Positions 925-64,000 of a stretch of DNA of 64,000 nucleotides are shown piece by piece. The stretch's first letter is position 1. The number at the start of each line of letters is the position of its first letter. The notes beneath the pieces were generated by a model that ran no database searches, was not told the DNA's origin, and saw only the letters and a program-made list of their open reading frames with translations. A program made the position numbers and the translations under genes. The stretch is from Nageia nagi (Eukaryota; Plantae; Pinophyta). Location: NCBI GenBank assembly GCA_050084985.1, contig JBITNC010000001.1, positions 115,072,001-115,136,000 of the forward strand, in the 5' to 3' direction.

Positions 925-3900
925 ATGGCAAAATCTTGGCTACAAACACCTAGAAATAGTGAGGACTATGTATATGGTGTTGAGGAATTCATTGATTTTG
1001 TAAGAAAGAATTCAAGTAACCCTAAAAGAATTAGATGTCCATGTTGTATATGCTAAAATATGGAAATTATTGGTTTTTAAAAGGTTTTTTAGCACCTATT
1101 TTTATATGGAATGGACAAGACATATAAAATATCTATTATTTTTTTGCATGGAGAAAAACTATCTATTATTAACGAATATGCATTAGACACATGCACTACC
1201 ATGGATGAGTGTCCAAATATGGAAGGTGTACAAGATGATATTATTGAAATATTCAATTTCAATTGCTTAAAGAGTGGAAAATAACTATGAGATAATGATG
1301 TCAAGTTCCAATTTTCTCTTGATGAATTCCACTCCTTGGTTGAAGATGCTGACAAACAACCATTATATCCAAGCTATACAAAGTTCACAAAATTATCGAC
1401 ATTAGCTAAATTATATTACCTCAAAGCAAAATATGGTTGGTAATACAAAATATTTGGTGAGTTATTAATGTTGCTAAAAGATATGCTCCTAATTTATAAT
1501 ACATTTCCAAAGTCCCCATATGTGGTGAAGAAATTGTTGAAGCCACTGGGATTAAATTATGTAATGATACATGCATGTAAAAATGACTGTATTTTATAGA
1601 AAGATTATGATAATATTCAAGCTTGCCCAAAATATGTTACTTATCATTGAAAAATTGACCCTTATTAAAAAATCAAACAAGATGTTAAGGTTCTTGTCAA
1701 GGTATTGAGGTATTTACCCATTGACCAGAGGTTGAAGAGAATGTATAGGTAAATATCTTTGTTTATACCACTAGCTTTATTGTATTTATTTCTTTCATCA
1801 ATGTTAGACGTTGCTAAAGTGAGCTTTTTTCTTCTTGTAACTCTGTAATGGTTTTTAAGAATATGAGATGGCATTCCTAGCATAAGAGTTTAGATGCAAA
1901 AATTCAACATCTAGTTGACTATCCAACATGGAAAATGATAGGTGTTAAGTGGTTGAATTTTATTGATGATCCACACAATGTACAATTGGCAATTGCAACC
2001 AATGGGTTCAATCCTTTTGTTGATTTTAGTATTGGTTACATTTTTAGGCCCATTGTGTTGGTCATGTACAACCTTCCACCATGGATGTCAATGAAGAGAA
2101 AATTATTCAATGCTTAGCTTGTTAATAACTAGCCCCAAGAAACTAGGTAAAGATTTTGATATTTTTCTACAATCATTGGTTGATTACTTGCACAAACTAT
2201 GGATTGAAGGAGTACAAACTTATGATGCATTTCAAAATACTACATTCAATATGAGAGCAAATATATTGATATGAGTAATTCATGATTTTCTTTCTTATGG
2301 AAATATGTTAAGTTGTATGATAAAGGGACTAGTAGGATGTCTAATATGTGGTGAAAACACTTGTTCAAAATATCTTAAATGCAGTAAAAGGATCATTTAC
2401 TTGGGCCATTGGAGATTCCTTCCTACATATCATCTATTTCATAGTCAAAAAATATCTTTCAATGGCCAAGAAGAGCATGGTAAACCACCAAAATGTTTAA
2501 CTGGGATTGAAATACAACAAAAAATAGATAGAATCCCATCAAATTAAGGAAAGAGGGAATAAAAGAAAAGAAACGAAGAAGAATGATCATAACGAGTCTC
2601 TTATAGTAGGATGGAAGAAGAAATCTATACTCTTCAATCTGTCATACTAGGAGGTATGAAATGCAATTTTAATTTTTTATTTGTTGTTATATCTATCAAT
2701 ATGAAGTAATTTTAGTTTGATATTTTTATTTTTGAACAAAATCTTGTACTTCGTCACAACTTGGATATGATGCATATGGAGAAGAATGTTTGCGAAATCC
2801 TTTTAGGGAAATTGTTATGTATTGAAGGAAAGTCAAACAATGATAGAAAGTCCCATGAGGATTTATTAAATATGAAGATTAGGAAACCATTGTGGTCATT
2901 AATTGATGAAAAATAAGACATATCTTCCAACAACACCCTACAATTTGTCTAAGAATGAGAAATAAAGTATTTGTCAAATATTTTACAATTTGAAATTACT
3001 TGATGGGTGTATTTTAAATATGAGCAAACACATATCTATGAAAGAACATAAGAACATCGATCTAAAATCACACAATTATCATATTCTCTTGCATCACCTT
3101 CTTTTGATAATACTACAACATGTGATTGAAAAGCCTGTACAACAAACCATTTGTAAGTTATGCATGTTTTATAGAGATATATGCACGAAAGTGGTGGATC
3201 TCATGAAAATGGAGAAATTATAGGAAGAGGTTGTGGATACATTATGTTTACTTGAAAATTACTCCCCCCTTTCATTTTTTGATATCATGGTGCACTTAAC
3301 AGTTCACTTGGTGCAAGATGTACTTCTATATGGACCTATGTAATATCAATATATGTACCATTTTGATAGGTTTGTATGTAATCATCAATTTCATAAACCA
3401 CCATTTTATAATTTTGTATAGTATCTCATTAAAACAAAAATATTTTTCTTTTTCAAAATTATGAAGATTGTTAAGGGTTATGTAAAGAATTGAGCTAGCT
3501 TGAAGGTTGTATTACATAATGATATATCTTTGAGAAATCTATTTCATTCTATACAGATTACATGACATGTTTAGAAGAAATTAATTGTAAAGAGGCAGGG
3601 AGTGATGAAGAAGAAGATACTATAGTCCATGGAAGGCCAACATCCACTAGCGAACTCTTTAATTTGGACCCATTTCTCTCAAGCAAACTTATCAACATGT
3701 TTTCCTTAACATGAATGAAGTTCAACCTTGGGTAGACTAGGTGTCTATTTGTTGTTATTATATAGTAGAATATTATTTAGATCCAACTATACTTGATAAA
3801 CTTTAGGCCAAATCAAGAAGCATGAGATGAGTATCAAGGAATCCAACCCTTGTGCAGTGAGAGATGAAACATGGTTATAAAAAAATCATATTAAAAAAAT

Positions 3901-4666
3901 TATCCCTTGAATACAAGATCAAGTTATTATACTCATATTAATTTTTGACATTCTTATGTATCAGCATGTAATGTTTGGTATTTTTATTCTAACTATTCTT
4001 CTTTGTTTTAGTTTTAGAGATGAAAATCAACATAATGGTGACGACTTTGACACAATAAAATGGGTGGCATGTGGTCCAAATCAAATTGCCACCAAATTTT
4101 AAGGCTATTTGATCAATAATTATAAAATTAATACCAAATATATAGATGAACAAAGAACAAATTAAAACAATGGCATGTGTGTCGATGCATTTTTCAAGTG
4201 CAGAGGAAGTGTAAAAGACACAAATATGGTGCTTGAAATAGTTACATATTATGGTGTTATTAGGAAAATAATTACGTTAAATTAGTATCAGTTTAAACAC
4301 ATTATATTCAAATATGATTTAATTAATGTTGTTGAAAAGGAGAATGTATGTAAAAATGATGAAATGGGCTTCAAAATGGTCAACATGAGCAGATTACAAT
4401 GTGGGGATAGACTAGAAGATGATCCATTTAGTCTAACATTATAATCCAAACAAGTATGTTATATACAATATTTAGAAGAATCCAATTAGTATATGGATCT
4501 CATATAACCTCCAAGAGGGATAAGAGACATTGAAGTGTATGAGGTAGATTATACTAGTATCCCTTGAGAAACAAATTTCATTGAACATAAAATTGCATAA
4601 GATGATAATGCAAATGATGGCAACATTCGATATTTGCATGGGGATATTGAGGGTACATATTTTTGA
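925..4666 (+). pseudogene. CACTA Tnp2/TnpD-like transposase pseudogene (transposase-associated, Transposase_21, DUF4218- and DUF4216-like segments) with introns, stops and frameshifts
   Basis: Fragments DPHNVQLAIATNGFNPF...YNLPPW (1935-2117), GCLICGE...YLGHWRFLP (2305-2547), LRHNLDMMHMEKNVCE (~2748-2795), LKSHNYHILLHHLL (~3060), SFFDIMVHLTVHLV (~3270), YYGVIRKII (~4245). Confidence 0.9.
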
Positions 4667-7453
4667 GCATGATCTTGTAGCTTGATTGGAAGTCTAATAC
4701 ATGTTATATATTTAAATACTAAAATTTAATATCCATATTTTGTAATATGTTTGAATGCATTGGCTATTGGTAATGCTACTATTGATTATATGTTTATTCT
4801 TTATTTTGCAATAAATGAATATGATGAAACTATAAATTTAGCACTTAATTTTAGACCATATGGTTTATTTAGATCATTTCTTGTCTTTATTTAAATAATT
4901 TCATATCACATGGTCTATTTAGATATTTCAGTGGTAGGTATGAATTTGTTGGAGGTTTTAAATAGCAAATTTGATGTTGTTATCGCTTCATGAGGTTTCA
5001 AAGATACTTAAATCATCTCATATCATTTTTTCATATCATATAGTGTACTTAGATCATATTTCTTAGCATGATCTTGTAGCTTGATTGGAAGTCTAATGCA
5101 TGTTATATATTTAAATACTAAAATTTAATATCCATATTTTGTAATATGTTTGAATGCATTGGCTATTGGTAATGCTACTATTGATTATATGTTTATTCTT
5201 TATTTTGCAATAAATGAATATGATGAAACTATAAATTTAGCACTTAATTTTAGACCATATGGTTTATTTAGATCATTTCTTGTCTTTATTTAAATAATTT
5301 TATATCACATGGTCTATTTAGATATTTCAGTGGTAGGTATGAATTTGTTGGAGGTTTTAAATAGCAAATTTGATGTTGTTATCGCTTCATGAGGTTTCAA
5401 AGATACTTAAATCATCTCATATCATTTTTTCATATCATATAGTGTACTTAGATCATATTTTTGAGCATGATCTTGTAGCTTGATTGGAAGTCTAATACAT
5501 GTTATATATTTAAATACTAAAATTTAATATCCATATTTTGTAATATGTTTGAATGCATTGGCTATTGGTAATGCTACTATTGATTATATGTTTATTCTTT
5601 ATTTTGCAATAAATGAATATAATGAAACTATAAATTTAGCACTTAATTTTAGACCATATGGTTTATTTAGATCATTTCTTGTCTTTATTTAAATAATTTC
5701 ATATCACATGGTCTATTTAGATATTTCAGTGGTAGGTATGAATTTGTTGGAGGTTTTAAATAGCAAATTTGATGTTGTTATCGCTTCATGAGGTTTCAAA
5801 GATACTTAAATCATCTCATATCATTTTTTCATATCATATAGTGTACTTAGATCATATTTCTTAGCATGATCTTGTAGCTTGATTGGAAGTCTAATACATG
5901 TTATATATTTAAATACTAAAATTTAATATCCATATTTTGTAATATGTTTGAATGCATTGGCTATTGGTAATGCTACTATTGATTATATGTTTATTCTTTA
6001 TTTTGCAATAAATGAATATGATGAAACTATAAATTTAGCACTTAATTTTAGACCATATGGTTTATTTAGATCATTTCTTGTCTTTATTTAAATAATTTCA
6101 TATCACATGGTCTATTTATATCTTTCAGTGGTAGGTATGAATTTGTTGGAGGTTTTAAATAGCAAATTTGATGTTGTTATCGCTTCATGAGGTTTCAAAG
6201 ATACTTAAATCATCTCATATCATTTTTTCATATCATATAGTGTACTTAGATCATATTTCTTAGCATGATCTTGTAGCTTGATTGGAAGTCTAATGCATGT
6301 TATATATTTAAATACTAAAATTTAATATCCATATTTTGTAATATGTTTGAATGCATTGGCTATTGGTAATGCTACTATTGATTATATGTTTATTCTTTAT
6401 TTTGCAATAAATGAATATGATGAAACTATAAATTTAGCACTTAATTTTAGACCATATGGTTTATTTAGATCATTTCTTGTCTTTATTTAAATAATTTCAT
6501 ATCACATGGTCTATTTAGATATTTCAGTGGTAGGTATGAATTTGTTGGAGGTTTTAAATAGCAAATTTGATGTTGTTATCGCTTCATGAGGTTTCAAAGA
6601 TACTTAAATCATCTCTTATCATTTTTTCATATCATATAGTGTACTTAGATCATATTTCTTAGCATGATCTTGTAGCTTGATTGGAAGTCTAATACATGTT
6701 ATATATTTAAATACTAAAATTTAATATCCATATTTTGTAATATGTTTGAATGCATTGGCTATTGGTAATGCTACTATTGATTATATGTTTATTCTTTATT
6801 TTGCAATAAATGAATATGATGAAACTATAAATTTAGCACTTAATTTTAGACCATATGGTTTATTTAGATCATTTCTTGTCTTTATTTAAATAATTTCATA
6901 TCACATGGTCTATTTAGATATTTCAGTGGTAGGTATGAATTTGTTGGAGGTTTTAAATAGCAAATTTGATGTTGTTATCGCTTCATGAGGTTTCAAAGAT
7001 ACTTAAATCATCTCATATCATTTTTTCATATCATATAGTGTACTTAGATCATATTTCTTAGCATGATCTTGTAGCTTGATTGGAAGTCTAATACATGTTA
7101 TATATTTAAATACTAAAATTTAATATCCATATTTTGTAATATGTTTGAATGCATTGGCTATTGGTAATGCTACTATTGATTATATGTTTATTCTTTATTT
7201 TGCAATAAATGAATATGATGAAACTATAAATTTAGCACTTAATTTTAGACCATATGGTTTATTTAGATCATTTCTTGTCTTTATTTAAATAATTTCATAT
7301 CACATGGTCTATTTAGATATTTCAGTGGTAGGTATGAATTTGTTGGAGGTTTTAAATAGCAAATTTGATGTTGTTATCGCTTCATGAGGTTTCAAAGATA
7401 CTTAAATCATCTCATATCATTTTTTCATATCATATAGTGTACTTAGATCATAT
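4656..7453. repeat. Tandem array of seven near-identical 399-bp units
   Basis: GATCTTGTAG anchor at 4671, 5070, 5469, 5868, 6267, 6666 and 7065 (period 399); only a few substitutions between units. Confidence 0.97.
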
Positions 7454-16973: not shown

Positions 16974-17062
16974 TATATCACCCTCAAAAATATAGATATA
17001 TTCAAATCTGCTCTAGAAGATTCTTCAACTATCCAAATCCTTCAAAACCTGTATGCATATCT

Positions 17063-17064
<2 letters not shown>

Positions 17065-17101
<37 letters not shown>
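17065..17101. repeat. (AT)n microsatellite
   Basis: Direct reading. Confidence 0.95.
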
Positions 17102-17102
<1 letters not shown>

Positions 17103-20100: not shown

Positions 20101-21037
20101 CCTATAGCCCCCTAATGATCTAATCTTCTTTATAGAGTATGAAGAAATCTCCTACAAACTAAAATTGTTAAACCTCACTTTTAACATAAAAAAAGGTTAA
20201 ACTTATGGATTTACTCATCAAAGATATGAAGTTGTTGGACATGAATTTGAAAAATTACACATCTACTAATATTGAATATTTGAGTCATAAAACATTTTCT
20301 CTTAAAGACTTTGCATGCCCTCTCATTACAATCTCTATAGTATGAATGCTTTTCAACTATAATTGTATCAATTACCATGAATGCTCTATGATATTTTAAG
20401 TGATGTGCTGTGAAGTTTAATCCTATAAAAAAATTAAGCCATATAATTTTATTTATGATTTTATCCATTTTCATCAGCATGTAATGGTGTTTGGTGTTAT
20501 TCGTGTCGGTAATGAAAAAGTAGCATTTTGTATGTAATCATAGATAATTATTTCTTAATCTTCTTCTTTAATGACTGGCTTATTTATGGAACCATGTGCT
20601 TGAGGATAACTAGTGCACAAAATAACTTTTAAACCATGACATAAGGGTGACTTTTCTTTTACAATACACACTTCTAAGAATTTTTCATTTACACTTAGTA
20701 CATATATTTAACATTATAACATCTCCAAGTTAAATGAATTGCTTATGTATGAAGTTCTCCTAACCATATGTGAAGTATGCAAATCCATTGAAGTAGTATA
20801 ACATGGCATACCATAGGAACCCACAAGTAGTTTTCTAGAACAACATATCTAGTACCATTCCATTGAATTTTTTTAGCACAATGTTTAAGGATTATTTGCA
20901 TAAAGTAAAAGTAATGTTTGAAATGATAAACAAAGTTTGTACCATTATCATCCAATTTTTATTGCAATCATCCCCCATGAAACCCTTGCTATAACAATTG
21001 CATGACTGTACATTTTGTACTATTTTTTATTGAATGA

Positions 21038-21539
21038 TGAGAGAATTGAACTATAACATGAACAACTCTAAACTTTCAAGATCACATGAAAGCTCACAAT
21101 ACACATCTAACAAACTCACAAAGCAATCTCACAAAGATAACACAAGATGTAAGTGGTTTCTCCAACTAAGAGCACATCCACTAACTAGATCTTTACTTCA
21201 ATCACAAATACAACTCTCTTATAATCCTCTTAATCTCAACTCCTAAACACTATCCTCTAGCACAACTTTACTCCACAAATTGGTGTGTACTCACAAAGAG
21301 GGAGCATTCTATTTATATGCCAAAATTCCTCTTTGGATCACCCTTTTATCCAATGTACAAAAGCATGACATGCACATCCTTTTACCCAAGGGGCATGCTC
21401 ATGACATGGAGTGTAGAAAAAGTGACATTATTAGATTAATTTAAATATTTAAGGTATCAAATGATACCCTTAAGTATTAGTGAACTTACATAGAATATTA
21501 TTACAAAACCTTTACAATAATGCATTATACATTCCAACG
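21038..21539 (-). repeat. Copia 3' LTR
   Basis: About 92% identical to 29106-29607 (about 39 mismatches counted by eye); adjacent PPT. Confidence 0.95.
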
Positions 21540-27380: not shown

Positions 27381-28507
27381 AACTAGATAAAAATTTAAGT
27401 AGGAAATTTATACAAATTCCCCCCTCCCTTTTTTTTACTTAAAGGTTTATCCCTAAAGGTAGCATACTAAATAATTTATTCTTAAAAGTATTTTGAATAA
27501 GTGCATTTAATAGTAATGATGAATGTTGGACCAAGTCAAAAGTAATGTAAGTATACTCACCATGAAAATACTTTAAGTGATTTATAGGCATCTAAATGCA
27601 TTTAATGATTTGTAAGTTGGAGTATAATTACTTATAAGTCATTTAGGTGCATTTAATATTGCATATAAAGTCCACACTCCTCCTAAGTGCATTTAATTTT
27701 GTCATCAAATTTAGTGATTCTTTAGCATGAAACTCCATGCATAGTGTCATGATGATAAAAAAAGGTTGCTTATAAAAGGAAAAAAATTAAATGCCCCTCA
27801 AGGAAGCCACAAAGAGACATGCAAGAGGGAGATGGCTACAATAAGGAGGCAAGCATGAGCTAGCAAGGGGGGTTGGTCAAATGAAAAAAATACCTTGGTT
27901 GAGCAGAGTAAATTGGCCATAGAGAAACTGTGATGGAGAGTGGCCAAGCAGAGAGAGGATCAGTTGTGCGAAGGAGCAATGCCAGATGGTAAAAGGGGTC
28001 ATGGGCAATGAGCCTTTGGTTGGGGAAGGGGGCTATGAGTTTAATCAGAGGGGTCATGGAGATGCAATCAGAGGGGTCATTGAGACAGTTAAAGGGGCCA
28101 TGCAAGGAGGAGGACTTTGATCCATGTGAGGAAAAAATTTTGGAAGACATGCATCCACACTCACCACACCATAGACACACAATGAGGAGAGGGTAAGAAA
28201 AAAGAAGCAAGTACTAACCAAGAGGATGGTCAAGAGATGGAGTCTACAGTGAAGCTAAGAGAAGATGGAGCACACAAAATAAAGACAAGAGAAGGAGTCC
28301 AACCGGATCATCTCTCCCTAGTATGGGAGGAGATTTGTATGAATTTTTCATTTTACAAATTTTTGTATATATAAAAAAAAACTTTCTTATATATATCTAA
28401 TTTGTAATAAAAAAAATACAACTCCTCTTTTTGTTTGAAAAAAAATTTATATAGCAAAGATCCTCTAATGTTTTGTATTAACATTTTTGTTAAAAGGTGT
28501 AAAATTT

Positions 28508-28524
28508 TATATTATATATATATA

Positions 28525-28564
<40 letters not shown>

Positions 28565-28654
28565 TTTTTTAAATATTCTTCTTCACAAAGATAGTGAAGA
28601 GATAAAAAAAATACAATATTTTTCCTAAGATATTATTTCTTAAAAAATGTATCT

Positions 28655-28746
<92 letters not shown>
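28508..28746. repeat. Two interrupted (AT)n microsatellites
   Basis: Runs at ~28510-28559 and ~28655-28746. Confidence 0.9.
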
Positions 28747-28747
<1 letters not shown>

Positions 28748-29091
28748 CAAACCCTTTGATAAAAAAAAAATCTAAACCAAATATATGCAAAATTAGAGCA
28801 ATGTAACTAGCAATTCTAAACTAATAGGAAGTATTAGTATAAGTAAACAAAATTGCTTCTCAATATATTGCTCTTTAACAAATTTGCCACATATATAAGA
28901 GAGAACTAACATTACACCAAATATGTTAGTAACATTAGTTAAATATGTAAAAAAAAAGACAACAAAAAAGAAGGAGATTGTAAGTAGGAGGTTATACCTT
29001 ATCTTGAATTTTACCTCAACAATGAAATGAAGAGATGAACACCAAGAAGAAGAGTTTCCACACTAAGGATGTGAAGAGGAGCCTTCAAGAT

Positions 29092-29103: not shown

Positions 29104-29105
29104 AA

Positions 29106-29607
29106 TGAGAGAATTGAACTATAACATGAACAACTCTAAACTCCCAAGATCACATGAAAGCTCACAATACACATCTAACAAACTCACAAAGCAATCTCAC
29201 AAAGATAACAAAATATGTAAGTGGTTCCTCCAACTAGGAGTAAATCCACTAACTAGATCTTTACTTCAGTCACAAATACAACTCTCTTACAATCCTTCTA
29301 ATCTCAACTCCTAAACACTATCCTCTAGGACAACTTTACTCCACAAATTGGTGTGTAATCACAAAGAGGGAGCCTTCTATTTATAAGCCAAAATCCCTCT
29401 TTGGATCATCCTTTTATCCAATGTATAAAAGCATGACATGCACATACTTTTACCCAATGGGCATGCTTATGACATGGAGTGCAAGACAAGTTACATTATC
29501 ATATTCACTTAAATACTTAAGGTATCAAATGATACCCTTAAGTATTAGTGAACTTATATAGAAGATTATTACAAAATCTTTACAATAATGCATTATGCAT
29601 TTCAATA
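29106..29607 (-). repeat. Copia 5' LTR
   Basis: Pairs with 21038-21539; adjacent PBS. Confidence 0.95.
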
Positions 29608-37060: not shown

Positions 37061-38216
37061 TGTAATGTTCCTTTCTAGGGTTTATCCATTTAGCATTCAA
37101 TTTCACATTCATTCACAAATTAGGGCATCAATGAACTTGCTCATTAGCTATCCAAATATGCATTCAAAATTGGAATATAATAGCAGTAGCCAAATATAAT
37201 ATAAATCTCTTATAACATGTGAATATGACCAAAACTAGGGCACAAATTAGATATTTTACATAATAAAAATATAGCTCCAAAAGTACTCAATTCGTATACA
37301 TTCCCATGCACAAAGAAGATAGTAGCATAGAAAAAATATATAGGAACATTCATTCACATTCAATATGCAATATGAGAGACAATATCATCAATAATCAACC
37401 AAGAATAAATGCAGGTTTGTAACAAGCTTGTAACAAGTTCTAAGGCAAAGCCCAAGACTCCAAACTACTCAAACTAGACTCCTCAAGGCTACCGTAAGTC
37501 CCAAGAAAGCTTCCAAGCTAGGCACAAGTCTCAAGATGTCTCCCAATGGTTGGTGCAAGCTCCCAAGTAGCAAGGATGATAGACACAAGCTCCCTAAGAG
37601 ATGTAGAAGTACAAATGAGCCGCTTCTAGGCTAGGGAGTAACCCTAAGCCCTAGAAGGTAGAGAAGGGAAGCATCCTTAAGCTCTGAATGATCCAAGATC
37701 AAATGCATAAGATGATATCTTCAAATGAGGTACTCACTTCCCTTTTATAGAAGTCTAATTTTAATTTATGGTTGGTCGACCCAACCTAAAAATATAAATA
37801 ACTCTTAATTGAAAAATGACTCCTCCTAACCTAGACATTTGGCAATTAAGGAATAATATTTTTTTTATTACAAAACATGGTTCACTTTTATTATAAAATA
37901 ACAAAGACTCCTAATCTAAATATAATTCACTTCTAATACCCCTCATAGGGCCTGACTATTAATTATAAGTATCACAAATGACACTAAATACAATATTAAT
38001 AAACTAGATCCTACATACATGATAGTAGAAACTAGCTCTAGGGATGAATTTTCAAATGTCCATATATTTCTCATTTCTTGATAGAACCATGTTGTGTGAC
38101 TTTTCAAAAAGGTTAGCATAAGATTCTCTATCCATTCCAAAAGATAAATTAGCAATCCATGGATTGTGACAAAAGTTATGCCTTCAACAAGGTTTCTCAA
38201 AATTGGGAACATTACA
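37061..38216 (-). repeat. Gypsy 3' LTR
   Basis: Colinear with 46880-48035, roughly 85-90% identical by eye. Confidence 0.93.
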
Positions 38217-46879: not shown

Positions 46880-48035
46880 TGTAATTTTCCTTTCTAGGGT
46901 TTATCCAATTTAACATTCAATTCCACGTTCATTCATAAATTAAAGCATCAATGAACTTGCTCATTAACCATCCAAACATGCACTCAAAATTGGAATATAA
47001 CAACAATACCCAAATCTAATATAAAGCTCTTATAACATGTGAATATGAACAAAACTAGGGCATAAATAAGATCTATCACATAACATAAATATAGCTCCAA
47101 AAGTACTCAATTCATATACATTCCCATGCATAAAGAAGATAGTAGCATAACAAAAATATATAGGAACATTTATTCACATTCAAGATGTAATATGAAAGCT
47201 AATATCATTAATAACCAACCAATAATAAGTGTAGGGTTGTAACAAGTTTGTAACAAGTTCTAAGGCAAAGCCCAAGACTCCAAAATGTTCAAACTAGACT
47301 CCTAAAGGCTAGTGCAAGTCCCAAGAAGGCTTATAAGCTAGGCATAAGTATCAAAATATTCCCAATAGCTGGCGTAAGCTCCCAAGTGGTAAGGATGATA
47401 GGAATAAACTCTCCAAGAGATGTAGAAGCATAAATGAGTCACTTATAGTCTAGGGAGTAGCCCTAAGCTTAAGAAGGTAGATAAGGGAAGCATCCCTAAG
47501 CTTTGAATGATCCAAGATCGAATGTACAATATGATGTCTTTAAATGAGGTGCTCACTTCCCTTTTATAGAAGTCCAATTCTAATTTATGGTTGGTCAACC
47601 CAACCTAGAATACAATAACTCTTAATTGACAAATGACTCCTCCTAAGCTATATATTGGACAATTAAGGAATAATATATTTCTCTATTACAAAACATGACC
47701 TTCTTTTATTATAAAATAACAAAGACTCCTAATCTAAATATAATTCACTCCTAATACCCCTCATAGGACCAAACCATTAATTAAAAGTGTCACAAAAGAC
47801 ACTAAATACAATATTAATAAGTTAGGTTTCACGTGCGTGATAGTAGAATCTGAATTTGGGGATGAATCTTCAAATGTCCATATCTTCCCTGTTTCTTAAC
47901 AGAACCATGTCGTGTGACCTATCAAAATGATTAGCATGAGATTCTCTACCCATATTAGAAGACAAATCGACGATTCCATGTATTGTGACAAAAGTTATGT
48001 CTTTAGCAAAGTTTCTCGAAATTGGGAACATTACA
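46880..48035 (-). repeat. Gypsy 5' LTR
   Basis: Colinear with 37061-38216; PBS adjacent. Confidence 0.93.
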
Positions 48036-48900: not shown

Positions 48901-49605
48901 AAAGAGAATAACATTTTCCAACCACAAATTCCTTACTTTCCTCAATGAAGAAGAAACACACTATAATGATGCTACCAAACATTTGAACCTTTAACTCTAA
49001 ATACTAAAGAAAGGAATATTACCAAATCTTTGAATATAGAAAAAAGTCAAAATTAAAAATTAACAAAGAGAAATTGTATTTATCTCAATGAGACAATACC
49101 ATGATTCAAATTGTAACTCTTCTATAAAATAATACAATGATGCAAACTGTGACTCTTTAAATGATTATTTCATTCTATTGTAATTTGGTACACTTTAACT
49201 ATTTTAGATTGTTTTAATGCTTACAATCATGAAGAGATTCCTACACAAAATCTGGGTTCCTGGTTCCTGTAACAGTTGAGCTTAAAAAAAGTTGTCACGA
49301 TGCACAAAAACTGTGTTGGAATTGTTTATTACTTGTCACTAAAAACTAACTAATGATAAGCCAATCACAAACCGTAGGATCTCCGAAGGATCCTTCAATC
49401 GCACGGACCCCGAAACTCCATACTGTTTACCCCGCCTTCATCTGCAATTTCCTCCTCTCCTCCTCCTGTCGTTTCCGCAGGCATCCATTGACCGGAAGAT
49501 TCACCATAAACACAAATACCTATCACCAAACAATAACAATATTTCTGCCCACCATAAACCCAGTTCTCCAATTGAAATGCAGAGGATCTCGGCTCTTTCA
49601 AAGCC

Positions 49606-50049
49606 ATGTCCCTCATATGCGGCGGAATTCCCATTTTGGAATGCGTTTACTGCATAGCCTGTGCGCGCTGGGCATGGAAACGATGCCTCCACACCGCCGA
49701 AGACGACAGTCGCCATTGGGGCCTCGCCTCCCCGGACGAGTTCGAACCCGTGCCACGGATGTGCCGTCTTATACTCTCTGTCTACGAAGATGATATGACC
49801 AAACCCAAATGGGCTCCCCCGGGTGGTTATCTTCTGGATTTGCACGGTTTCCTCAAGCGTGCCACATATTCCCACACGGGCGGTCGTGCCCCTCCTTACG
49901 TAATTTATCTGGACCATGAACACCGTGACATAGTTCTGGCAATCCGAGGCCTTAATATGGTTATGGAGAGTGACTATGCATTGCTATGGGATAATAAGCT
50001 TGGGCAGCAGATGTTCGATGGAGGTTTCGTCCACAATGGCCTGCTCAAG
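49606..50049 (+). CDS. Class-3 lipase with Lipase3 N-terminal domain (alpha/beta hydrolase), exon 1
   Basis: MSLICGGIPILECVYCIACARWAWKRCL..FEPVPR..AIRGLN..FDGGFVHNGLLK; 444 nt ending AAG|GT. Confidence 0.95.
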
Positions 50050-50124
50050 GTAGTTTAATTCACCCATATATATATTTTGTTTGATGGGTGTTTGGATTTG
50101 AAGGTGGTGTTTTTTGTGTTTCAG

Positions 50125-51249: not shown

Positions 51250-52950
51250 TTTTGTCCTTTGCCTTATCTTGCAAGTTTGGTCCTGGTTGTTGCTGGTTGT
51301 GATCGACCCTCTTCTTGTGCTTGCGAGGCTGCTGTTGCTCATGCCTCTTCCTCTACCATTGCGGCAACTTCTTGTTTCATGGCTTTCAAATCTTCAAAGC
51401 TGACATCAAAATCGACATCCACCTTTGGTTGGTGTTCTAATAAACATTCTGCTTGTGGATTTGTTGGATCGATTGCATCCAACTCTATCGCCTCGTTATT
51501 GGTTCTTTCAATTTTTTTGTGATAAAGACGAAAGTTGTAATGCACAAATACTAGATCATTTAAGCACTCTTGGGTGAGCTTGTTGTGCTTCTTTTAGTGG
51601 ATATGTTTAAAGGTGCTTTAATTTCGCTCACATGTAGAAGCATTGCATGTTTGGATAAGATCCTAGTTGCCAGCTTTTTAAGATTGAGCATTTTACCACC
51701 ATAATCCTCTCACCATAGATTTGAAAGAAAAAAAGAAATAAGATTTCTATTTTGTTATAATAAGTGAGCAATTCACTAAAATAAAATACATTTTGTTATT
51801 TGGAGCCTGAGTGCCCCTTCCATCAAGGCATTGTGGAGATTGGAAGAGGTAGCTTTGTTCCTTCTTATAAATTTGAAGCTCGTGATGTACAATATTATTT
51901 CTCATAGCCACATTAGTCACCATATGCTCAATGCACAATTGGAGGCCTATGGAAACTTCCTCATTCATGCCAAAATACTTTGTATAGAAAAACATAGAGT
52001 TCAGGTAGTTCCCTGCTACATGTAGAGGCCTAGGAAGTTGTTTTAGTCATCCATGGTCAATGATGTCCCAAATGGGATGATATTTCCTCTCCTTATAGCT
52101 ATAAAAGGAAGCGATAGCTTTATAAAGGTAATCCATAGGGGATTTATCTGAGTCAATGAGGCAAAAATCTTCACCAAGGGCTTCAAAAATTGCAATGCAA
52201 ATTATACAATTAGTACATATTCCTATTAAATTAAAAATTGATAGCAAAAAACTTGAAATTGAATTATACCTGAATAATTTCATGTGATGCCTCCCAAAAG
52301 GCATCATCAAAGACCCAATCAACAACATTCATGCCGTCAGTTTCACATGCATATTTAGAGGTTGATCACTTGTTGCTCATGAACATTTGCTTCAAAACAA
52401 CTCTTGATTCGTATAGACAATGCAATGAAATAAATGATGTGGCAAAACACGTAACCCTAGATGTGCAAGTGATAAATATTTTTTTTAAGTCTTTTTATTT
52501 CAAATCTCAATGGAAAATTCGAAAATAAATTAAATGAAAATTAAAATAAGATATCAAATTTATAATACTTGCATGTACAATATGCCCTTCGTGAAATTTA
52601 TCCTCATCAAATTGAGGATCCATGTTTTAGTGTAGATGTATCATGTAATGTTTTTTTGCTCCGTTTATAACCTCTTCACCCAACCAATTTTCCCAATGTC
52701 CTCAAGAAGTAAATCAATACAATGTGTAGCACATGGACTCCAAAAAATAGTTGGGTATCTCTTCTCAGTGAGTGTTTCTTCTGAGATGTATGTAGTGGCA
52801 TTATCTATGATAATCTGCACAACATTCTCAAGGCCCATGGCCATAATGACCTCCTCAAGCAACCCAAATAAATACTTGACAATTTTTACTTTTGCCAATG
52901 CATCCATTGATTTCGAGAACACTAGACCTAAAAAAGAAACCAAAAATTAC
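51250..52950 (-). mobile_element. hAT (DUF659-type) transposase remnant in lipase intron 2
   Basis: ENVVQIIIDNA..IFWSPCATHCIDLLLEDIGK; DSDKSPMDYLY..PIWDIID; C-terminal RLNDLVFVHYN-like motif (~51535-51565). CpG-decayed subterminal-like repeats at ~54250-54415. Confidence 0.88.
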
Positions 52951-58106: not shown

Positions 58107-58333
58107 TTATTCATCTTTATCTTCACACGTGGGCGAGACATCAACGAGCTCCTTGTCTTTTGCGGGTGTGCCATCTTTGACATGGATCATTTCCAATCTC
58201 TTAGCCTTGGCACCTTTACTCAGTTGCTCCTTAATTCCGCGTAAGATGATCTCACGTCCATGAACCTTGAACTTCATCTCCAACATCTTGTAGTTGGAAG
58301 TGATCTCTCCTTGTGAGCATAACCATTGCACTT
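58107..58333 (-). pseudogene. Gypsy aspartic-protease C-terminal remnant (continues at 63970-64000)
   Basis: Removing the 58334-63969 insert restores GGLPHLVLGVQWLCSQGEITSNYKMLEMKFKVHGREIILRG. Confidence 0.85.
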
Positions 58334-58632
58334 TGTTGTGCCTTACACAATTTGCCCCCTAAATTTTGCAATTTCGGGGACCCTCGACAATTTGGAGCCT
58401 TGAATGTCAAGTCAAAACCATTTCCCCTCGTCTCAAGTAAATCCAAAATTAAGCCCATAACCTTGAAATTGAAGTGCAATCGCCTATCCAGCCCTAGCCA
58501 TCTCAAACCATATAGTAAAACCCTCGTAAATTGACTAAGTTTGGTCGAGTGTAGATCAGGTCTAGGTGGTACAGGGAAGTCCAAGTCAAGATTCAAGCCA
58601 AAACGGATGGACCCAGGCTCCTCCCAGGCCTA

Positions 58633-59557
58633 GCGCATGCTCCAGGAAGACAAGATTGTGTCTTTCTAGGATGTGCGCCCAGCTTGGAAGGAAGCCTGGC
58701 TTCGAAATTAAGTCCCAAAACGCAAATTGGGCCACTCCTTGACCTAGCACATGCCATGAAAAGACAAAATCTTGTCTTTCTGGGGCATGCGCCAGGACAA
58801 GAAGGATCCCAGGACGAAATCAAGCTTGGAAAAGGACAAGTTAGTGCATGAGAAGACTAGCGTAGGCCTCAAAAAGACAAAATCTTGTCTTTTGGGAGCA
58901 TGCGCCCAAGCCTGAAGGTTACCTGGGAAGACTTGGAGCCCAGAAAGAAGAAATACACTCACGGCGCATGCCTCGAAAAGACACAACCTAGCCCAGGAAG
59001 CCCCTCAGATGGGACAAAACAAAGAATTTGGCTAAGGTACGGAGTTTTGAAGCCTGGAGCACACTCCAACATGGCCAGAGGGGCTGGTGCATGCCTCCAA
59101 AAGACAAAAACATGACTTTTTGGAGCATGCGCCAAGCCCTGGGAAAGCACCAGGGTGGGGCAAGTATGGGAAAATGACTAAGTCCAGGGATCAGGAGGCC
59201 AAAACAAGGCAAATCTGGCCATTTGCAACCTAGTGCATGCCATAGGAAGACAAGATTGTGACTTTTGGGAGCATGCACCTAGACTGGAGAAGCTGGAGGG
59301 AGTTTCAAAAAGACAAGATCCTGTCTTTTGAAACCATTTGCCAGGTTTGGGAGGGACCCTGGGTCAAGTCAGGAGGAGAAAATGAGCAAGTCGAACCACA
59401 GAGAATTAAGCACCAAGCAAAATCAAGCTCAGGATGGCACTCTAGGGTCAAGTTGGACGAGTAGGAACACTAGGAGGACCAATTTTGGGAATGCAACCAC
59501 CCTAGGGGCTGGCGCATGCCTCAAAAAGACAAAACCTTGTCTTTTGGGAGCATGCGA
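58633..59557. repeat. Array of ~45-bp palindromes separated by variable spacers
   Basis: GCATGCCTCAAAAAGACAA-AATC-TTGTCTTTTGGGAGCATGC variants at ~58633, 58747, 58860, 58963 (half), 59087, 59234, 59305 (core) and 59512. Confidence 0.9.
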
Positions 59558-59715
59558 CAGGCCAAAAGAACCTTTAGAATCCCAACGATTGGTCCCAGAC
59601 AGTAAGGAATAGGGTTTCAAGATGACACACATCATGAGGTCGGCCACTTCAATGGTTGAGATGTGTTTTTCTCCAAAACCTAGCCGACTAGGGTTTTCAA
59701 AATGCCCACATCAGC

Positions 59716-59723
59716 TATAAATA
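59716..59723 (+). promoter_or_regulatory. TATA box upstream of the element B ORF
   Basis: CTATAAATA between the palindrome array and the ATG at 59950. Confidence 0.55.
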
Positions 59724-59949
59724 TCAACTTGGGGACCACATTTTTCCAAATTCAAATCGCGCTCCTCTTCTACACTTGTGTTTGAATTGTAGATTTTTGA
59801 GTTTCAAACCCGTCCATTTGCTTGGGGAGGCTTGCGCAAGAGATATAGGATGATAGGAGGAAGACTTGGGGGTCATAGGCTTGCCTAAAAGAAAAAAAAA
59901 GAAAAGCAACACATCACCTCGGAGGGTCCCTGCCATTTATCAGGGCATC

Positions 59950-62862
59950 ATGACTAGTTCCAAAAGTAATTCGGCCAAGGATTATGCACGAGATTTGGAA
60001 TACATCAAGCAAGAATGCCTCATCACCATATGCGAGCGACAAGACCCCTTGCCCCAGGGGGCTAAATTCTCGAAAAACGAGTTGGCCACTATTGGGGAGA
60101 CAGACTGGCAGAAGGTGGATCCGATGTAGATGAGGGAGAAGATCAAGAACAAACCCATCAGCAAGTTGAAACAAGACATCGTCTTCTTCTTGGGGCTCTC
60201 GACTTGTACATTCGTCCCATACACAGCTCCTTTCCCAGAGTTGTGCTTGGAAGTTGGTCATCATTGGAAGATGGGTGAGAGAGTGCTCTGAGACATCAAG
60301 GGCAATGTCATCATGAACTTCAGCCTCGAAGGCATCAAGAAGGCATTCCAATGGATGAAGGAAGGCAACTTTGAATACATAGAAGAGGAGTCGTTGGCAT
60401 GATATCGGGACACCAATAGGGCAGCCAGAGCAATCAAGAGTTGGATGTTCGAGGAGCACCATGGTTTGAAGGGTAATGAACTTATCAATGCCCCTCGCTC
60501 CCACTTCTACCCCTTTGTTCAATTAATGATCCTCATGTTGTCAAGAGTTCTCGGGAAGGAGGATGCATTCAAGTTTCGAAAGGAGTTCTTCGGCTTCATT
60601 ATGGAGATAGCCCGGGGAAAGAAGATCAAGTGGAGCAAAGTGTTAAGCGATAGTATCATGGACCAATTGTCATCAGTAGGAACCACACACAAGTTCTACC
60701 TCAACTCCTACCTGGTATACCTATTATTGCATGGCAAACTGAGGCCCACGACTTTAGGAGAGGCGGACTTGATCACAAGGGGAATACGCAGTGTGGAAAT
60801 GCTATCCTAAGTGGAAGGTCGCCAATCATTATGACCCTGAACATCGGATTAACGATTTTTACATGAAGGAGAGGAAGAGAGCTTACGAGCATAGACCACT
60901 TAGAGATGAAGAGCCATTTCAGAACATCAGTGCCGAACTGGAAGTGAAGAAGATCTATGCCAAGATGCAAGAAGAGGCTCAAAGGCAACAATAGGGGGTA
61001 GAGGTGTCAATTCATAAGAAGCTATCTCAATCTTGGGGAAATAAACCACATGGGTCTACTTCTAGGGTCAGTCAGTTTCCACCAACGATTGGAGAGCCTG
61101 TTGGATAGTATGCCTCCGTGCATGGGAAGGCCCCAGCTGAGCAGGTAGCATAATAGGTTAGGGAGATGGTTGATGAACATGACATGAGGGAGTTGGAGCG
61201 TGTGGCCATCGATATGGTGGTGAGATGTGTGAGGAACCAAATATCGGATCCGACTTCTCCCTAGAGGCCAGCAAGGATAGTAGCAACGTATCCATCCTCG
61301 ACCATTCCACGATCAGGATTAGAATCCTGAGGACCCCAATATGAAGACTATGACACCCTTCATGGAGAACAAGCAGATAGATAGGAAAATGGTGACCGAC
61401 AAAGCATGCTTGAGGAAGGGGAATATGAAAGTATTCCGCAAGACGAGTCAGAGAAAGGGCTAGGAGATGAACATGAAGCCAGTATCGTTCCAGAAAGAGA
61501 TATACAAGATGCATACGGTTAGGAAGAACCATCAGTGGAGATCTTGAACTACGCCCATAATCACACCACCTCAGAGTCGTTAACCTTCGAGAGTAAGGAT
61601 TAAGACCTTGCTTCGGAGTCAATGCCGAGGATAACCCAATTGAAGAGAGGATCCTAGTCCAGGTTGTTGGTAACACCAGGGGAAATTGCAGGGCAAGGTG
61701 AGAGGCCTTTGAAGAAGATTTGGAATGGCGCAGTTGTTGTTTCAAAAGCAGTTGTTGAGACCCATCAGCCTCCATCCAATCCTGAGTGGGGAGTAGATAT
61801 AGATGAGTGTCTCGATGTTTTCAACATGGATGTGGGGGAAGAATTTAGACCCAGAGGGACAGGAGATCAGGTTGGAGAGAGTTCCACTCGCTTGGGGAAG
61901 AGTTAGACCTATGTACATATGACAGAAAACGCAGTGTGCATCAAGACCATAGTGGCAGACAAGGACAACCCCCAGGGTCCCAGAGACTTGAGGAAAATAA
62001 ATCATATCATCAACACAGGCCCAATTGGTGTGACTGGTAGGAAGCATGCTATTATTTTGAATGTCGAGGCAATAGCCAAGGATGGGTTGTTGAAGGAAAA
62101 AAAGATAAAGAGCTTGAAGAAGGAGTTGGCAGCCCAGAGGAGATTGACACGCGAGTTAGAGTTGGCCAAAGTACCCACAGATGAACTTAAGAAGGTAAGA
62201 CCTCTCAAAGAAGGAATGATTGTTGTGAAACAAGAGGTGATAGAAGAGGCCTTAGCAGTGTTGATACGATTCATCGATATCCTCCACCAAATCTCGTTCG
62301 TAGAGGAGTAGCTGAGGTATATTATCACCAAAAGGGTCAGGCTACTCAAGATCTTAGACTCCCAGAAACCCATGATACTAAGATAGAAGGCGATGCATAC
62401 TCAGAGACCCAAGGACACGAAGTTTTGTGAGGACTACTGGTTCTATTTGGGTGTAAATAGCCAGGTACATACCCGTTTCCAGGAGATGAAACAAAGGGTG
62501 ACTGTAATTAATGATAAGGTCCATGCATGTATGGAACGGATGGACTTTCAGTTACAGTTCTTGGAGGAAGATGCCACCATCTAGGAAGCAGATGGGTAGT
62601 GTCCGAGGTCAGACACTTTCTCCTTAGCCTAATGATGATTGAAGATGTGAACTCCTACCAAATAGGGAGTCACTTGAGGCATATACTGCGGGCCCAAACA
62701 TGGAAGGACAAAATGCAAACAATGGTGAATGAGTCCAAGGAGAGCATGACTGCCAGCAGACCAAAGTTCTCAGAGATGCTGAGTGGGGTGGAGCACATGA
62801 CAGAGTTCTTGGCAGCCGGGTTCGAGGACCGAGTTGCGGGCTTGGGCCCACCATTAGCTTAG
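59950..62862 (+). pseudogene. Decayed ~970-codon ORF of element B, function unknown
   Basis: Consecutive + strand ORF pieces (59866-60129, 60445-60810, 60791-60994, 61664-61906, 61919-62311, 62393-62584, 62527-62862) broken by stops and frameshifts; coiled-coil-like KIKSLKKELAAQRRLTRELE. Confidence 0.75.
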
Positions 62863-64000
62863 TCATTTTTATTTTCAGTTTTCTTATTTTACGCATCTTC
62901 CAGTTGGACATTCTAATATTATTTAATTCCCAAACTCGTGAAGGATGAGGATTTGCTCCCACGAGTTTGGAGGAGATTTTGTAATGCCATGTGGCAATTT
63001 TTCATTTGACCGCCTGTTATTTTGTGAATTAGGGTTAGGGCAACACTGTTGGTTGCTCCTAACATTATTTATACCCCATTCTGACTCATTTGTAGGGGAT
63101 TTGACATTTTGACATCTTAATACAACTTTGCTGTGCCAAATTGCTCTAAAGTGTTGAAAGTGGTGTATGTGGATGTTATTGTGATGATATACTTTTTCAT
63201 GTTGCAATAGTGGATGTGAATGAATGCTAGATAGTGTTATCTGTTTTCTTTCTGCCATCACTTGATGTTAGCTCAGTTTACTTGGTGCATTTCATAAACT
63301 TCATTGGAGTGGATGAGAGGTTGCTTGCATATCTTGAGAAGTAATTGACTGATATCTCGTGGGTGGCATTTCATTATTGGTAGTATTGGTTTGATGATCT
63401 TGGGATGTCTCATTGATGTTATTCGTCGCAGGGACTTCACCCAAGCCCTTTAGCCCCACCTTGGTCCCTTCTTATCTCACCGCCCTAGCTTCACGCTCTG
63501 TTCACCCAGCTATTTGTGTTGTTGGCTAGTGGACTGGATAGTGAGTGCTTGGAACCTGCATTGAACCCAAGTGAGTCGACTTCCAAGAGTCTTTATCAAG
63601 CCCATGAATTAGCGTGTCTACTCTTGCATCCCATTCCCACAGTCTTTCCACCATTTTATCTTTCTTTATTTTCTTCTATTTTCACTTTCTTTTCACGGCT
63701 TTCGCATCCCAATTTCCCTTTTAGTTCTCAAGAAGCGGCCTTGGTGAAGCCCAAACACAGAATAATCCGAGTCCCTTGAATCCACACATGATATTCATGT
63801 TGGTGGTAGCTTTAAACATCTTAACTGTCCCCTGGGTTGTTCTTGCATAACCCATGAAGCCGAACCTTTGGGGTAACCAGTCCCCATAGCGGGAGGGAAT
63901 AACATCCTCCACTTGAGATGTTGGCTCTTTTCCTACTACTCTAGGGTAGGAAAGAAAAACCCCCCAACACACTCCAAGCACTAAGTGTGGTAAACCACCC

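Follow-up and report, generated by a model that had tools for sequence, protein, structure and literature searches.

A probable solo long terminal repeat with an accessory gene, broken here and selected in its family, in Nageia nagi

The unit, its ends and its interior

The window analysed here is a 64,000-nt stretch of the genome of the conifer Nageia nagi (contig JBITNC010000001.1, positions 115,072,001 to 115,136,000, forward strand). Near its end lies a 5,636-bp unit that starts with TGTTG and ends with CAACA (Table 1). This unit is probably the solo long terminal repeat (LTR) of an old multi-copy conifer retrotransposon family, whose LTR of about 6 kb would hold a selected accessory gene, disrupted in the present copy; for its product, a DNA-binding protein of PMD/VANC fold with a coiled coil is predicted.

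The unit is flanked by a 5-bp target-site duplication (TSD), CACTT on the left and CACTC on the right. The sequences on either side encode GGLPHLVLGV and QWLCSQG, on the minus strand, in a single protease-like frame, and three contigs of uninterrupted host copies in public run X2 join them with a single target copy. Thus, the TSD is real, with one later change, and the insertion site is exact. The TG...CA termini are common to family copies, and a duplication within the 4–6 bp looked for surrounds the single unit. The simplest reading of one unit that has both att ends and a single TSD is a solo LTR.

Local alignments of the first with the last 300, 600, 1,200 and 1,600 nt of the unit, direct and inverted, never rose above shuffle maxima, and therefore the unit contains neither an LTR pair nor a long inverted repeat. 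A motif scan found no primer-binding site (PBS) inside it, and none of its three purine runs of at least 14 nt is followed by TG. No second LTR, gag or pol was found inside by end alignments, Pfam search or tail comparison. Identity as a large retrotransposon derivative (LARD) or a terminal-repeat retrotransposon in miniature (TRIM) was rejected, there being no flanking LTR pair above shuffle level and no internal PBS or polypurine tract (PPT).

Upstream of the reading frame, the palindrome array consists of a 70-nt family present six times, one further full unit and one half unit, with self-complementarity of 61–77%. CpG depletion in the array is not lower than elsewhere. The array is a candidate enhancer, or a candidate target of the encoded protein. 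Words of the form TATA(A/T)A(A/T) occur just twice in the whole unit, at 59716 on the plus strand and at 63073 on the minus strand. A possible old LTR end at 59911 (CAACA) was rejected, as it is preceded by an A-run that other copies are without.

An earlier note on this DNA had described the TGTTG...CAACA ends with their TSD, an interior free of LTR pair, PBS, PPT, gag and pol, and a palindrome array followed by a TATA box ahead of the reading frame; all of these hold. The diverged terminal direct repeats that would mark a LARD or TRIM were looked for in the end alignments, and none were found. The note's claim that excision restores the protease motif VLGVQWL stands as regards the single frame and the empty site. 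The name of the host frame, which we take to be a gypsy-type protease motif, found no match in a Pfam search.

Table 1. Features of the unit and its insertion site (positions of the window)
Feature	Position	Strand	Remark
Whole unit, likely solo LTR, TGTTG...CAACA	58334..63969	+ (orientation inferred)	Ends common to other family copies
Left TSD, CACTT	58329..58333	+	Empty host site in public contigs
Right TSD, CACTC	63970..63974	+	Empty host site in public contigs
Interrupted host retroelement, protease-like frame	58107..58328	-	Resumes at 63970-64000
Array of imperfect palindromes of ~46 bp (7 full, 1 half), likely U3	58630..59578		High depth in public runs
TATA box of the open reading frame (ORF), likely LTR promoter	59716..59722	+	Also present in the diverged copy L002
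Broken copy of the family gene	59950..62862	+	17-18 stops; frameshifts near 60783 and 62594
N-terminal domain, basic, with a predicted fold like VANC21/PMD	60067..60817	+	Modelled on relative L002
399-nt in-frame deletion relative to L001	60817..60818	+	
Predicted coiled-coil C-terminal region	62080..62570	+	Crude heptad scan, relative L009
Conserved non-coding block 3' of the stop: hairpin, TTGTAA, TAGGGTTAGGG, TATTTATA	62914..63112		Multi-copy comparison
Conserved terminal hairpins, GTGTTGG pairing with terminal CCAACA; likely U5 end	63864..63969	+	

A multi-copy family and its gene

The unit is one multi-copy family with fixed ends. Part of it is present in 12 of 21 public runs. Contigs of four runs were matched to it at 80% likeness, and all 30 bins of the unit were covered in each of the four. 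Twelve contigs exit the unit at 63969 into unlike sequence (agreement 0.46), and 3, 2 and 4 contigs exit at 58334 in three of the four runs (agreement 0.60–0.62). The 58334 end is less conserved, with a depth of 5–59 versus 273–1,207 at the other end; depth in the middle of the tail is similar to that of the conserved ORF.

Scanning metagenome contigs for the protein yielded 12 loci out of 193 candidate stretches. These loci have 64–79% DNA identity to the unit and are colinear with it, and none reaches the 5' end. Seven distinct 3' ends stop at the same base, GGTAGGA(A/T)AGA(A/T)AAA..CCAACA, each with its own flank; L003 and L007 are the same insertion, as are L006 and L008, each pair being counted once, and L004, L010 and L012 stop short of the 3' end. 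Upstream of its ORF, L002 keeps one palindrome unit and the plus-strand TATA box. The order of promoter, ORF and tail is common to subfamilies that are saturated at synonymous sites. An apparent long terminal inverted repeat in L002, formed by an inverted tail upstream of the ORF, was rejected as an amplification or assembly artefact because 100%-identical fold-backs at contig ends are also found in L003, L005, L007 and L009. Viral contigs gave no match by protein or by end motif. The sole match in a prokaryote genome, L013 in a Rhodoferax metagenome-assembled genome, was dropped as a bacterial insertion sequence without likeness to the unit, in which positions 3113–3136, just upstream of the transposase, match the unit end motif by chance.

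The intact 2.9-kb ORF of about 970 codons reported in the earlier note was not recovered. The 971-codon span from the ATG at 59950 to the stop at 62862 can be read only through 3 + 15 stops and two frameshifts, and the longest stop-free plus-strand stretch in the unit is 135 codons. The homologous path holds 17 stops, as one of the 18 sits just beyond the second frameshift. With the 399-nt deletion in addition, the window copy is a pseudogene rather than the "complete expression cassette" that solo-LTR formation had been proposed to leave behind. Its differences from public contigs are mostly transitions (77–162 places per kind versus 7–27), an excess as in old methylated repeats. In L002 the gene has 1,081 codons, with start and stop as in the window copy, and its first 971 codons lie in one frame with three stops. 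Since L001 and L002 hold this extra length, the family gene is about 1,080–1,100 codons long and the family unit about 6.0 kb.

At family level the gene is real and under purifying selection; in the window copy it is dead. In 21 in-frame pairwise comparisons, which share sequences and are not independent, third codon positions differ by 0.41–0.60 and second positions by 0.06–0.31. The ratio of non-synonymous to synonymous change (dN/dS) is 0.05–0.33 in the 16 pairs with measurable dS, the other five being saturated. Controls gave 0.87–1.45 in the wrong frame (n=3) and 0.51–0.74 in the tail (n=3). The selection spans the N-terminal domain, the acidic middle and the C-terminal part. The dN/dS check that the earlier note had called for has thus found a constrained frame in the family.

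The fold of the N-terminal domain is weakly predicted to be VANC21-like, the model matching VANC21 (PDB 9LNK) with 6% identity and a root-mean-square deviation of 4.7. It is slightly more likely than not that the protein acts in the nucleus as an oligomer, binding DNA as a member of the PMD/VANC superfamily. By analogy with VANC of VANDAL transposons, it might bind the two-fold symmetric U3 palindromes and keep the promoter unmethylated, a role that is put forward tentatively and is rather doubtful.

Profiles of PMD (PF10536) and TRP28 (PF04195) gave no match at E<=0.05 in 86 members and none at E<=10 in eight long members, and there was no ATHILA match in Pfam. A sequence-profile search of the PDB gave two weak, unrelated matches; Foldseek against the PDB and viral sets gave none at E<=0.001, and the ESM Atlas only unnamed or unrelated clusters. 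A homology search with segment 1 against longer proteins retained 0 of 1,031 candidates. The named distant relatives are hypothetical proteins of Taxus chinensis and one Cryptomeria model, with 3 of 10 clusters named in one search and 0 of 10 in two others. The Cryptomeria gene model XP_057824563.1 (P0085) starts with about 70 residues like the family domain, fused to an ALG12-type mannosyltransferase; this fusion is an exonised repeat or an annotation error.

The tail, the orientation and competing explanations

The 1.1-kb tail after the gene, also described earlier, is conserved across family copies. Between subfamilies it diverges (62870–63969) by 0.13–0.31 per position versus 0.41–0.60 at third codon positions of the ORF, and is therefore strongly constrained. 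In its conserved block, TAGGGTTAGGG and TATTTATA are presumably a telo-box-like repeat and a TATA box on the minus strand; the block is likely an antisense promoter and/or polyadenylation region. This second TATA module (minus strand, 63030–63073), with the telo-box-like repeat downstream, had been missed in the earlier note and is invariant in 8 of 8 copies. It faces the plus-strand promoter across the ORF and may drive an antisense RNA or be the true genomic promoter.

An alignment of the tails of eight copies contained no conserved TG start and no PPT between the stop codon and the 3' end. Thus, the unit is neither a LARD nor a TRIM, and the ORF is not simply followed by a short 3' LTR. Relatives with the ORF placed between two LTRs were likewise sought, and none showed an LTR start or a PPT between the ORF and the 3' end. 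A candidate internal LTR start at 63047 (TGTTG) was rejected as a boundary because it is absent in five of eight copies, whereas the surrounding TAGGGTTAGGG and TATTTATA are invariant.

The hairpins of the last 110 nt show compensatory change in 5 of 26 pairs, and their folding z-score is better on the plus strand in 8 of 8 copies, by small margins. Palindromes are placed in a cis-region upstream of the promoter in Sirevirus LTRs, according to the available text of PMC4728375. The better plus-strand folding and the position of the palindromes upstream of the plus TATA favour plus as the sense strand of the genomic RNA, with U5 ending at 63969; in this orientation the gene lies in R or U5. The following course of events is, taken as a whole, quite likely. 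A full-length element would have integrated into another retroelement, after which LTR–LTR recombination removed gag-pol. The remaining LTR would consist of U3, with palindromes and TATA box, followed by R/U5 holding the gene. Transcription from the plus TATA would produce a genomic RNA whose first cistron is the gene, as in Ogre, together with a gene-only mRNA ending in the tail, which a solo LTR could also make. The window copy would have decayed later and cannot encode the protein.

The earlier proposal of a giant solo LTR that encodes a protein therefore survives in part: fixed ends, multiple copies, a selected ORF and the lack of refuting repeats speak for it, whereas no pair of units around gag-pol was recovered and the window copy is dead. 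Several observations weigh against a solo LTR. The TGG of a PBS was found within the next 8 nt in 0 of 7 read 3' ends; 21 loose-ended contigs showed no PPT/PBS consensus, and nine of them no PPT consensus; and low removal is given for conifers in the available text of PMC13477047. Solo:intact ratios of 4.3–5.5 are given in that of PMC10006428, and at such ratios the count of 0 of 7 has p 0.30–0.37, compared with p 0.014 at a ratio of 0.2.

It is unlikely, though best placed among the alternatives, that the unit is the same solo LTR in opposite orientation. The genomic promoter would then be the minus TATA at 63073 and U3 would run from 63969 to about 63045, the gene being an antisense accessory ORF with its own promoter, comparable to those of PMD/TRP28 type in TatIII and Retand, and absorbed into the LTR. 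The invariance of the minus module is consistent with this, as are, in the portions available, an antisense PMD extra ORF in gymnosperm Tat lineage III (PMC4408406) and the antisense accessory ORFs of Retand (PMC11963269). However, the terminal hairpins fold slightly better on plus in every copy, the palindromes stand upstream of the plus TATA as in the Sirevirus cis-region (PMC4728375, in part), and the less conserved end is 58334, as is usual for U3.

Lower in probability is an element that stands alone: it has integrase-type ends, never had a partner LTR or gag-pol, and would have been mobilised in trans, whether by the integrase of a retrotransposon or by a Ginger-like transposase. The missing PBS and PPT signals at the read ends and loose-ended contigs agree with it, the gene is enclosed by two convergent conserved TATA modules, and it is selected as part of the unit. 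However, the terminal inverted repeat is just 5 bp, the unit encodes no integrase or transposase, and the sample of ends is small, an excess of solo LTRs accounting for 0 of 7. In addition, we know of no route in retroelement biology that copies such a unit without terminal redundancy. Ginger-like and other integrase-type DNA transposons carry long terminal inverted repeats and an integrase or transposase ORF; neither feature was found in the unit. It is very improbable that conifers hold self-contained TG...CA elements of about 6 kb, with no partner LTR or gag-pol, that would borrow integrase and carry their own VANC-like anti-silencing gene and palindromic target array, so as to demethylate themselves and unsilence relatives in trans.

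The first 80 nt of the unit (58334–58413) resemble the minus-TATA block (63041–63130) in the window, L001 and L003, a post hoc find with scores of 33–42 that 0–2 shuffles in 500–1,000 reach. The likeness covers about 70 nt, is weak in L006 and is absent in L002, L005, L009 and L011. An internally deleted or recombinant element, made of a 5' LTR piece, an internal env-like ORF and a 3' piece of another LTR, or a LARD or TRIM with diverged LTRs, would fit this likeness and the one internal deletion of the window copy, yet it was already disfavoured and is improbable, given how short, post hoc and patchy (absent in four of eight copies) the likeness is, the loss of TGTTG at 63047 within a kept block, the shared promoter-ORF-tail order and the ORF-like depth of the mid-tail.

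Neighbouring features, known systems and significance

Elsewhere in the window, a young tandem array (4656–7453) has a period of 399 bp and about seven copies at 99% identity. Two direct-repeat pairs look like LTR pairs of old elements: 37061–38216 with 46880–48035 (1,159 nt at 86%) and 21037–21537 with 29105–29605 (501 nt at 93%). Short AT-rich palindromic repeat blocks at 28484–28765 and 17044–17102 match each other. A host gene exon with a Lipase3_N domain (49576–50058, E 1e-21) lies about 8 kb from the unit, and a DUF659 match on the minus strand at about 52650–52950 is likely a decayed hAT-type transposase remnant.

The family is likely Tat/Ogre-like Ty3. In the portions available of PMC4408406, PMC6317226 and PMC11963269, Tat-clade Ty3 elements (TatIII and Ogre with PMD or PMD-coiled-coil ORFs, PF10536; Retand with TRP28) share with the unit a large accessory ORF in an LTR-type element with a 5-bp TSD. 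Their extra ORFs likewise combine an N-terminal globular domain (here a predicted PMD/VANC fold), an acidic linker and a C-terminal coiled coil (likewise a prediction here) under purifying selection, and very long LTR-sized units with repeat arrays are also shared. In contrast, the extra ORFs published in these portions are internal, before gag or between pol and the 3' LTR, whereas the present gene lies between the att ends of one unit; its product matches none of the Pfam PMD, TRP28 and ATHILA families, and no reverse transcriptase was found in the recovered sequence. VANC21 is an anti-silencing protein encoded by VANDAL transposons, which are Mutator-like (PDB 9LNK; PMC5735166 and PMC13547354, each in part), whereas the present unit is of retrotransposon type, with a 5-bp TSD, TG...CA ends and no transposase, which do not fit a VANDAL/Mutator-type carrier. 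The available text of the same two papers has VANC21 motifs arrayed in one orientation; the present array consists of palindromes.

As in Sireviruses, hairpin-forming palindromes are arrayed in the promoter part of an LTR-like unit; Sireviruses, however, are Ty1/copia elements whose extra ORF follows pol and precedes the 3' LTR. The likeness is one of layout. Genes borne within retroviral LTRs include sag of mouse mammary tumour virus and nef of human immunodeficiency virus, both in U3. These are likewise protein-coding genes within an LTR; however, they lie upstream of the main promoter and have a few hundred codons, whereas the present gene, of about 1,100 codons, follows the likely promoter.

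In plants, extra ORFs either precede gag or follow pol, ahead of the 3' LTR, according to the available portions of PMC7264820, PMC6317226 and PMC11963269. The full-text literature searched, which excluded most subscription journals, supplements (including those of PMC6317226 and PMC4408406) and Repbase, gave no plant LTR with a large PMD/VANC-type gene of its own. The parts available of PMC11539532, PMC12859917 and PMC13468544 contain nothing on plant LTRs holding such a gene.

The window copy is dead, and its importance lies in pointing to the family. Annotation is affected too: such units pass for "unknown" genes or LARDs, and they are longer than the maximum that common pipelines allow for an LTR. 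Hosts are held to disarm LTR retrotransposons chiefly by solo-LTR formation. If the accessory gene lies within the LTR, recombination spares both gene and promoter. In that case solo LTRs, which some gymnosperms hold in several-fold excess over intact elements, would add up to a large reservoir of transposon protein. If the protein acts like VANC, the family would offer a testable answer on the role of PMD-type extra ORFs in Tat/Ogre elements, and a candidate reason for the persistence of retrotransposons in giant conifer genomes.

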